5,684 nt of DNA from a virus (taxonomy: Duplodnaviria; Heunggongvirae; Uroviricota; Caudoviricetes): the IMG/VR virus record IMGVR_UViG_2695420699_000012; one strand, 5' to 3'. The number at the start of each line of letters is the position of its first letter. Within the stretch, counting starts at the first letter, position 1. Position numbers: made by a program. Below are positions 1-3,000 of the stretch, piece by piece.

Positions 1-3000
1 TATCTACGGCAGCAAGCCAGTAATGGGTTAAGTGATAACAGGTGTCTGGAAATATAGGGGCAAATCCAGCAACATTATGTCATCAAAGAACAGAACCCGC
101 AGAACAACAACCCGCAACATCCGATTTCCAAACCAGATAATTGAACAAATTAACATCGCTCTTGACCTGAAAGGTTCAGGTAATTTTTCAGCGTGGGTTA
201 TTGAAGCCTGCAGAAGAAGATTAATTAATGAAAAATATTCTCAATTTGTACCCAACAAAGACAAACACGACCAGAGCACCTGTTCAGACAGGTTTACTTA
301 AACGACTTATATATGACACAAAAAGCGACCACTAAAGTCGCTTTTTCTTATGGTAACAGGCAATAACTCTCTCAGATATTTTTTAGCATTTTTTTGACCG
401 CGCGTTTCCGGACGTATTCTGTTCTCCTGTCCCTTTATATCGTCGGAATACCCGCCGCTCTTCAAATCCCATTCCCAACTCAGAATGTAGTCTGTTGACC
501 GCTTGTTTTATTTCGGTCAGGTTCACCGGTGAAACCGGAGTCCGGCGCGCCTTACGCAAACACTCTGCTCGTTTCTGTGCCGCCACTTTTCTTTTCTGGT
601 CATCACTTAGCTGTACCATCACTTTTGCCCATCGTTCAGCTGCTCTCCGGTACAGTCCTTTTTTCTCCAGACATTCTGCCACGTGATCATGTAGCATAAG
701 TGACCTCCGATTATCTACAGACTGCCATCCTGAATTTACCTTCCCTTAATGAAATAACAATAAAAAACAAACCACGCAAAAACAATAAAACAACACACAA
801 AAAAAACTAAATAATAAACAAAAATAATCACCTTATTTTATTATTTTTTGAGGGAGCAATTACTGAACAAAAAACGCTGACTATATACTCAAAACCAAAC
901 AACTATTCTGCCAATCAGGTATCATGGCAACACACGGAATTACCGTGTTTTTGCCTTCTCTGCCCATACAATACGGGCATATACTTCATTCTCTATTGTA
1001 ATATTTCTATCCATGTGCCCCACTCCATTTACCTGTAAATAATATTCAAAATATTTATCACAGAAATCGTTTTTGGCCATGAACTGAGCACACTATAAAG
1101 TCCGGAACTGACTCTTTGTTAAATTACCTTAACGTTACCAGTAACACCTTCATAACAAAACATCACGGTATACACTGGGTACGGATATATTCCTGTGCTC
1201 CTTCCAGTTGCTTCTGCATTGCCATCAGCCGTTCTCTGAGGATGAAATAATCCCGTTCAGCGGTGTCTGCCAGTCGGGGGCCGGTTGCATTATCCACGCC
1301 GGAGGTGCCGGTGGCTTCACGCACGGTACCGGAGCAGGTGGCGTTGATCCGCAGGCGCTTACGACCAGCGGCAACATCAGCACGCAGAGTTTCATTTTCA
1401 GCTCTCGCATCGGCTAATTCCCTCGAGTATCTGGCATCAAGTGCAGCGACATCACGCTGGCGTATCTGCATATCAGTAATTGTCGCGTTCGCCAGCTCCA
1501 GCTCACTGGCTTTTTTATCGCGCTGCTCTTTGTAGATGATGGCGTGATCACGGTAATGATTCAGCCCCAGACTAAGCGCACCACAGGCCACCAGCAGGAC
1601 AATGATAACCACGCACAGAACACGGTTCATATCACCACCAACGGATTGCCCAGACCAGAACAGCAATGGCCACAATACGAATGGCAAAAGCTGCCGCTCT
1701 TGTTAAATCCAGACTGGCTGGCGTCTCCACTTCAATGCCTTTCATAATGGACAACCTCAGAAAGAATCTTTTATACTTCCTCATAGGGAAAGTACCTCCC
1801 TACCCATAATTTCTCCCTTGCCTTACTCAAGGTCAGAAAACACAAAACCCCGCTTGCTGCCAACAAACGGGGTTTTTACTTTTATTCACTTAGGTTTTAC
1901 CAGTTTTCAGGATTTCGTGTTATCCACCCGCGTTGGCCAACGTCATTTTTCAGGAAAATATTCTGCTATCTGTCGATGTCCCAGCACGCCAGCGCGCTCT
2001 CCTGGTCACGCCGTGAGACCTGACCGTAGCAATTATTTGAACGGATACGGCAGTCTCTGCCACCGTCCTTAATCCACCAGCGAATCGCCTCACAGGCACC
2101 TTTTCGATCGCCTGCATTAATTCGTTTATAAAACGTCGACGGGAAGCACTTACCGGGGCCAATGTTGTACGGACAGAATGACGCGATCCCCGCTTTCTGG
2201 GGTTCGGTCAGCGGCACCCGGATGTTTTTCTCCACCCATGCCAGAGCCTTGTCACGTTCGATGGCATTAACCCGGTCGCATTTTTCCTTTGACAGCTTCA
2301 TGCCAGGAATAACAGGCTTACCATCCACCAGAATGGCACCACGGCAGATGGTCCAGATCCCCGCACCATCACGGTATGCCGTGGTGTGGTTACCTTCCTT
2401 TTCATCCAGAAACTGGTCGAGGATTTCAGGCGCAGAAGCACCTGCACCAATCAGCGCCAGAACGGCAGCCGACAGGCCGTATTTTATTTTTTCGTTCATG
2501 GGGATTTATCGATTTCTAATCCCTTGATATGTTAGGTATATAATCCAACACTCATGGTCGCTCTCATAAACATATCCCTTGAGACGCAGCAGATTACAAC
2601 AAATGAAGCCATATAAATGAACAGTAAAGAAAGTTTGCGCAGAAGATTTTTACAACTAATGACAGAAAACGTTAAATCAGAGTTACTTCTTCTGATGGCA
2701 GATAATAACGAAGCAACAAGCAGCATTCTTGCAGACCCTTACGGTAAGATCTCACATAAAACGCTGGATATTATTACCACAACATTAACACCGCTGATGC
2801 TTCAACGGCTGAAACATAATATCAACGCATGGGTTAATGAAGAATTAAGTCCTCCCTGCTTATGGGATTCTCGTTACGCATGTCAGCAAAAAATGCGAAT
2901 TTTCAACTTACTATCACCAAAGCTCAGGTAGCCATAAAATCCTGCCCTTCATGGCATACAGGATTTCAATGGAATCACAATGACCAACTCTTGCACAGCT

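Follow-up and report, generated by a model that had tools for sequence, protein, structure and literature searches.

A pchA allele in the spanin-packaging interval of an Sp4-like lambdoid prophage

The 5,684-bp stretch of DNA analysed here (the window; IMG/VR record IMGVR_UViG_2695420699_000012) comes from a lambdoid prophage, of which it covers part of the late region. We are highly confident that it is best explained as carrying pchA of an Sp4-like prophage, in the interval between the spanin and packaging genes. The product of this gene would relieve silencing at LEE1 and ler, and its expression would draw on its own promoter, on relief of a translational hold by DicF, and on read-through from the late genes.

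Identification of pchA in the window

The pch coding sequence (383..697, minus strand) was called as an ORF with an ATG start. The sequence-only reading had described its 104-aa product as carrying PerC/Pch signature motifs and had proposed a Pfam search. That search returned a near full-length match to PerC (PF06069), with residues 1-89 on model positions 1-89 of 90, an E-value of 3.8e-44 and 149.3 bits against a gathering cut-off of 22.6 bits. The family signature AExLExxGLYRRAAxRW and the conserved cysteine are both present, so the description was correct. A word-indexed protein search returned close relatives only, and the family became visible once 1.84 billion representative proteins had been searched exhaustively with HMMER, which gave 82 relatives in all at E<=0.001. 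Of these, 74 were aligned; 12 residues were invariant or nearly so, and all 12 occur in the window protein (D4, A7, L10, E11, G14, R17, R18, A19, A20, R22, W23 and C46).

At the DNA level, the coding sequence is identical at 315 of 315 nt to pchA (ECs_1091) in prophage Sp4 of E. coli O157:H7 Sakai, and the identity to Sp4 over window positions 220-3714 is 99.4%. Sakai pchB (prophage Sp11) differs from the window gene by one nucleotide (V6L), and Sakai pchC (prophage Sp14) by three (V6L and V58M). These differences coincide with nucleotides 16, 172 and 183, the sole positions that distinguish pchA, pchB and pchC in Sakai (Uhlich et al., PMC5931665). Group 1 Pch proteins (PchA, PchB and PchC) are recognized by near-identity to one another and by location between Rz/Rz1 and the terminase genes of a lambdoid prophage, and we found both features here. 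On its sequence, the window gene is pchA itself, which is already known and which hundreds of genome annotations list as a PerC-family regulator. Because its 104 codons are identical to those of a well-studied gene, the finding is already textbook knowledge. The proposal that the gene encodes a prophage-borne activator of ler and the LEE likewise holds, as the DNA is identical to Sakai pchA, whose protein activates ler and LEE1.

LEE activation by PchA

According to Iyoda & Watanabe 2004, as summarized in PMC4456613, neither LEE expression nor adherence is complete without group 1 Pch proteins. PchA raises expression of a ler::lacZ fusion about 6-fold in K-12 (PMC5931665). Pch binds AT-rich sites within H-NS-bound regions, including many sites outside the LEE. 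Activation of LEE1 by Pch occurs only with H-NS/StpA present, with a contribution from Hha, and involves loosening of the silencing complex (PMC4764244). In this mechanism, which we favour and which has been demonstrated for the identical protein, PchA joins AT-rich, H-NS-bound DNA and loosens the H-NS/StpA/Hha complex at the LEE1 promoter. Transcription of ler can then proceed, and Ler in turn activates the type III secretion island together with effector genes located elsewhere.

EPEC PerC, encoded by perABC on the EAF plasmid pMAR2, belongs to the same Pfam family as the window protein, has the same LEE1/ler promoter target, and is 47% identical to it over residues 2-88. In contrast to pch, perC is located on a plasmid, where it shares an operon with the gene for the AraC-type regulator PerA, and not in a phage late region. 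PerC is also shorter than the window protein and lacks the basic C-terminal tail.

Organization of the late region

The late genes lie on the minus strand of the window, which has 48.3% GC overall, in the order nanS-p, S, R, Rz, pch, and the same order is found in Sp11 and Sp14. Profile matches identified a nanS-p-type esterase gene with SASA and DUF6645 domains (3841 to 5684 and past the right end; 617 aa as annotated in relatives), a phage-21-type holin gene (3187-3393) and a lysozyme gene (1966-2499), all on the minus strand. These are followed on the same strand by the spanin gene Rz (1163..1630; PF03245, E 8e-49) with Rz1 embedded in it (1225-1410; PF06085, E 2e-21). Convergent with pch is a ylcI/ynfO-family gene (DUF3950; 77..301, plus strand; PF13132, E 1.3e-17; NCBIfam NF041551). 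Between the two, folding identified a terminator-like hairpin that would act in both directions (320..346; AAAAA GCGAC-loop-GTCGC TTTTT), with U-runs on both strands and folding energies of -12.3 kcal/mol on the plus strand and -14.7 kcal/mol on the minus strand. RefSeq annotation of near-identical loci gives the same layout, with the terminase genes after ylcI, and pch lies between Rz/Rz1 and the terminase small subunit gene in the near-identical locus of strain 2013C-4830 as well as in Sp4, Sp11 and Sp14. The closest complete genome carries an Sp4-like prophage at yccA.

Comparison with phages that lack pch delimited the insert. Stx1, Stx2 and other lambdoid phages without pch are homologous to the window only at 77-211 and 1171-1646, and they carry unrelated DNA where the window has 212-1170. 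Since Rz and the 5' part of ylcI are all that these phages have in common with the window here, the segment from about 212 to 1170 is an exchangeable unit, which comprises the 3' end of ylcI, the terminator, pch and its upstream region (212..1170). A dispensable insert between conserved phage genes that is missing from close relatives is the mark of a moron, and this is what the comparison revealed; it fits a pch module that would be a moron in the post-Rz slot.

The sequence-only reading had placed the gene downstream of Rz in the position of lambda bor. Lambda bor encodes a lipoprotein and runs counter to the late operon. Like bor and other late-region morons, pch is a host-affecting accessory gene located after Rz/Rz1 and before the packaging genes, with a different base composition, its own terminator and an exchangeable slot. 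Unlike bor, pch is read in the direction of the late genes, and its product is a regulator. The placement was therefore right with respect to location but not to strand, and the likeness to bor holds for location only.

Several other features of the late region were observed. The nanS-p-type esterase gene sits downstream of Q, in the position of the stx genes in Stx phages. Window positions 1-68 are not common to most of the otherwise 99.8%-identical loci, whose alignment begins at base 69; one poultry isolate alone covers 1-5684, and its region is interrupted elsewhere by IS3. An ORF on the opposite strand (2617-2931, plus strand; 104 aa here, 90 aa in RefSeq) lies in a stretch of 36-40% GC that separates the holin and lysozyme genes; it is a homologue of Sakai ECs_1097 and matches phrog_1853, a family of unknown function. 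Its product had no match in Pfam or NCBIfam, and it looks like a second moron, within the lysis cassette. The interval from the lysozyme gene to Rz contains a strong intrinsic-terminator-like hairpin (1844-1876, minus strand) with a 15-bp stem and a U-run, followed by a small ORF (1632-1784, minus strand; 50 aa here, 37 aa as annotated) that matches phrog_4493. The corresponding slot in Sp11 and Sp14 holds other genes, such as an antirepressor gene. Between the esterase and holin genes, opposite the late genes, are two tandem short units (repeats D1 and D2; 3560-3840, plus strand), each with a TTGACA-containing stretch and a terminator-like hairpin, GCTGGCT-T7, at its end. Neither unit matched Rfam, and both may represent prophage sRNAs that have escaped annotation. 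In a near-identical locus (L001 25768-26020), the anti-sRNA AgvB (96 bits) and STnc100 (146 bits) lie a short way upstream of the esterase gene, at a place that corresponds to about 150-400 bp past the right end of the window.

The AT-rich region upstream of pch

From the Rz stop (1163) to the pch ATG (697) there is a gap of exactly 465 bp (698..1162, minus strand) with 33.3% GC, which agrees with the earlier estimate of about 465 bp of AT-rich upstream DNA. Hardly any other 465-bp segment of the window has less GC (the minimum is 32.9%, for the segment that begins at 710), and the promoter and regulatory DNA of pch presumably lie within the gap. This region differs by 1 nt from that upstream of Sakai pchA and is kept in pchB and pchC too. 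The only part that has diverged much among the three genes is a T-rich tract on the coding strand of about 745-860 (745..860, minus strand; 116 bp, 21.6% GC; alignment columns ~405-520). Silencing of the AT-rich region by H-NS seems plausible.

A sigma-70 promoter scan gave 5 sites where 6.3 were expected by chance; as the scan did no better than chance, its site at 930-902 (minus strand) is no evidence of a promoter. An Rfam search of the window at E<=1 returned only a chance-level rimP match over a terminator, with no RNA family in the AT-rich region. We also considered a 46-codon ORF within the upstream region (940..1080, minus strand), which matches phrog_2157 and is absent from RefSeq annotation. 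Compared with the pchB and pchC copies, it shows 9 non-synonymous codon differences and 1 synonymous one, and for this reason it is unsupported as a real gene despite the PHROG match.

Transcription of pch and late read-through

The native pchA promoter, PpchA, is functional and responds to Lrp-butyrate (PMC7279287), and pchA is also subject to LrhA and to feedback through LeuO (PMC4456613). The window gene would accordingly be transcribed from its own promoter under Lrp-butyrate and LrhA, with LeuO feedback. A second source of transcription is suggested by the gene arrangement. No terminator was detected in a minus-strand scan of 698-1162, and pch is co-directional with the late genes; read-through from Rz into pch by Q-modified polymerase is expected for these reasons. 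The Q-antiterminated late transcript should then also run into pch during prophage induction.

RNA-seq showed that pchB and pchC increase after SOS induction and that O157 pchA does not (PMC5931665). Both pchB and pchC lie in intact late regions. Sakai pchA is like the window gene in coding DNA, protein and its neighbours Rz/Rz1, R and S, but Sakai Sp4 (L002 32131-39827, set against window 220-5684) carries the S-R-Rz-pchA block in inverted orientation with respect to Q and the esterase gene, with IS629 and ISEc8 on either side of it. This inversion may be why O157 pchA, unlike pchB and pchC, is not induced. The window keeps the ancestral, un-inverted order, and this copy of pch is therefore predicted to be responsive to induction, on the basis of one RNA-seq study of a different strain whose Sp4 is assumed to be arranged as in Sakai.

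Translational control and DicF

The earlier claim of a strong Shine-Dalgarno (SD) sequence was accurate: GGAGG (704..708, minus strand) precedes the ATG by 6 nt and is conserved in pchA, pchB and pchC. As described in PMC7769764 and PMC9438474, an anti-SD within the pchA coding sequence pairs with the SD and blocks translation, a hold that the sRNA DicF relieves. RNAduplex predicted a segment of the pch coding region that pairs with the 5' end of the DicF from strain 2013C-4830 (593..622, minus strand) at -28.1 kcal/mol, compared with -18.5 +/- 2.5 kcal/mol for dinucleotide shuffles (n = 200), two of which were as good. Within this segment, UAAGUGA is complementary to UCACUUA, which lies between the SD and the AUG, and this makes UAAGUGA a candidate anti-SD. 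The minimum free energy fold of the start region had the SD only partly paired (z = -1.5) and did not reproduce the SD:anti-SD pairing. Pairing of DicF with the coding region would free the SD and so lift the translational hold.

The DicF gene adjoins dicB in the same prophage as pch in the near-identical locus of strain 2013C-4830 (L001 37856-37907), and dicB-type genes are also present in Sakai Sp4 and Sp14. The presence of the DicF gene in a pch prophage means that a translational activator and its target can travel on one element.

Similarity of PerC proteins to the ANR family

The N-terminal half of PerC-family proteins (given as window 383-550, residues 1-55) shows detectable homology to the ANR (AraC negative regulator) proteins, a family that includes Aar and Rnr (NCBIfam NF033650). 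ANR_neg_reg was matched below threshold by 70 of the 74 PerC-family representatives (best E 1.1e-7), and no family other than ANR was matched by more than two of them. Some Pfam-PerC proteins score above the ANR cut-off (32-34 bits against the curated 32 bits) and are named ANR by NCBI. PchA scored 13.6 bits against NF033650 (E 0.046), below the 32-bit cut-off, and so is not an ANR member; at the level of sequence, this score indicates distant homology of the N-terminal domain rather than membership. The two families share the N-terminal ~50 residues, three helices and a detectable common profile, and both act on H-NS-silenced virulence genes. ANR proteins differ from Pch in being about 55-70 aa long and in acting as anti-activators of AraC-type regulators that lower virulence gene expression, whereas Pch, an activator, carries an additional helix and a basic tail. 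The PICI PerC-like protein EcCIMP1_025, which represses LEE1, was recently suggested to be ANR-like, and the PerC-ANR overlap is mentioned once in passing there for the PICI protein, not for PchA (PMC11773190).

In the AlphaFold (AF2) model of PchA (pLDDT 83), three N-terminal helices are predicted with confidence, along with a fourth helix and a basic tail that is disordered, and no DNA-binding fold is recognisable. A Foldseek search of the model against the PDB gave nothing below E = 2.5, with weak TPR/MIT-like helical matches only, and a sequence search of the PDB gave no match.

These results bear on a different mechanism that would leave the identity of the gene unchanged, in which Pch contacts H-NS-family proteins through an ANR-type three-helix module, as Aar does, and is not a sequence-reading DNA-binding activator. 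The ANR matches across the PerC representatives and the model, with its confident helices and no DNA-binding fold, are in keeping with such a mechanism, as are the direct binding of H-NS by Aar (PMC5570504) and the need for H-NS/StpA in Pch activation (PMC4764244). However, PchA's own ANR score is weak, ChIP found PchA on DNA even without H-NS/StpA, and Fukui et al. report as unpublished data that co-precipitation of H-NS with PchA failed (PMC4764244); moreover, ANR proteins repress virulence and PchA activates it. On balance, we regard the contact mechanism as rather unlikely. We hold just as tentatively its structural counterpart, in which the N-terminal three-helix half of PerC/Pch would be homologous to the ANR module, contact with H-NS-family proteins would be the main route of de-silencing, and the extra helix and basic tail would serve as a DNA tether. 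The PerC-ANR likeness is thus a lead on mechanism and not a result, and PchA joining H-NS-bound DNA at the LEE1 promoter stays the favoured reading.

Co-occurrence of pch and ler

The sequence-only reading had also proposed a check of the host for LEE and ler, which was carried out at population level and came out in its favour. Of 5,426 complete E. coli genomes, 676 carry pch, with a median of 3 copies per carrier, and 697 carry ler; a chimeric ler+pch query found one gene or the other in 699. This union, set against 676 and 697, means that almost all pch carriers are LEE-positive. By inclusion-exclusion, at least 673 of the ~676 pch genomes also carry ler, at most 2 lack it, and ~97% of ler carriers have pch. 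Therefore, at the level of the population, the host of the window very probably carries the LEE.

We also weighed whether the prophage could reside in a LEE-less host, with a regulator that either lacks a cognate target or works solely at other loci bound by H-NS. Near-identical windows do occur in dog, cat, pig and poultry isolates that have small genomes and a single pch copy, and Pch binds many non-LEE sites (PMC4764244). Inclusion-exclusion, however, makes the single-copy dog, pig and chicken isolates LEE-positive as well, and with so few pch genomes lacking ler we judge such a stranded gene to be very improbable. Even less credible, and already refuted by sequence identity to PchA, is a PerC-family paralogue that has little effect, other targets or a repressive effect on the LEE, as do PchD, PchE, K-12 YfdN and EcCIMP1_025: PerC membership alone does not predict LEE activation, as PchD and PchE have minimal effect on ler (PMC5931665, PMC6265319) and EcCIMP1_025 represses LEE1 (PMC11773190), but the window protein is 100% identical to ler-activating PchA, is not of the PchD/PchE type, and is only 47% identical to EPEC PerC.

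Discussion

We conclude that the value of this window lies in its correct annotation, which is that of a pchA allele whose Sp4-type late region is un-rearranged. The current understanding of pchA is unchanged by it, and the likeness between PerC and ANR proteins offers a modest lead on how Pch acts against H-NS. The tight co-occurrence with ler makes pch usable as a marker of a host that is almost certainly LEE-positive. In both EHEC and atypical EPEC, the pchA, pchB and pchC genes act as master inputs to expression of the LEE, and they tie prophage content to attaching-and-effacing virulence. If the ANR relationship is true, activators (PerC and PchABC) and repressors (ANR proteins and EcCIMP1_025) of one virulence island would be variants of one fold.
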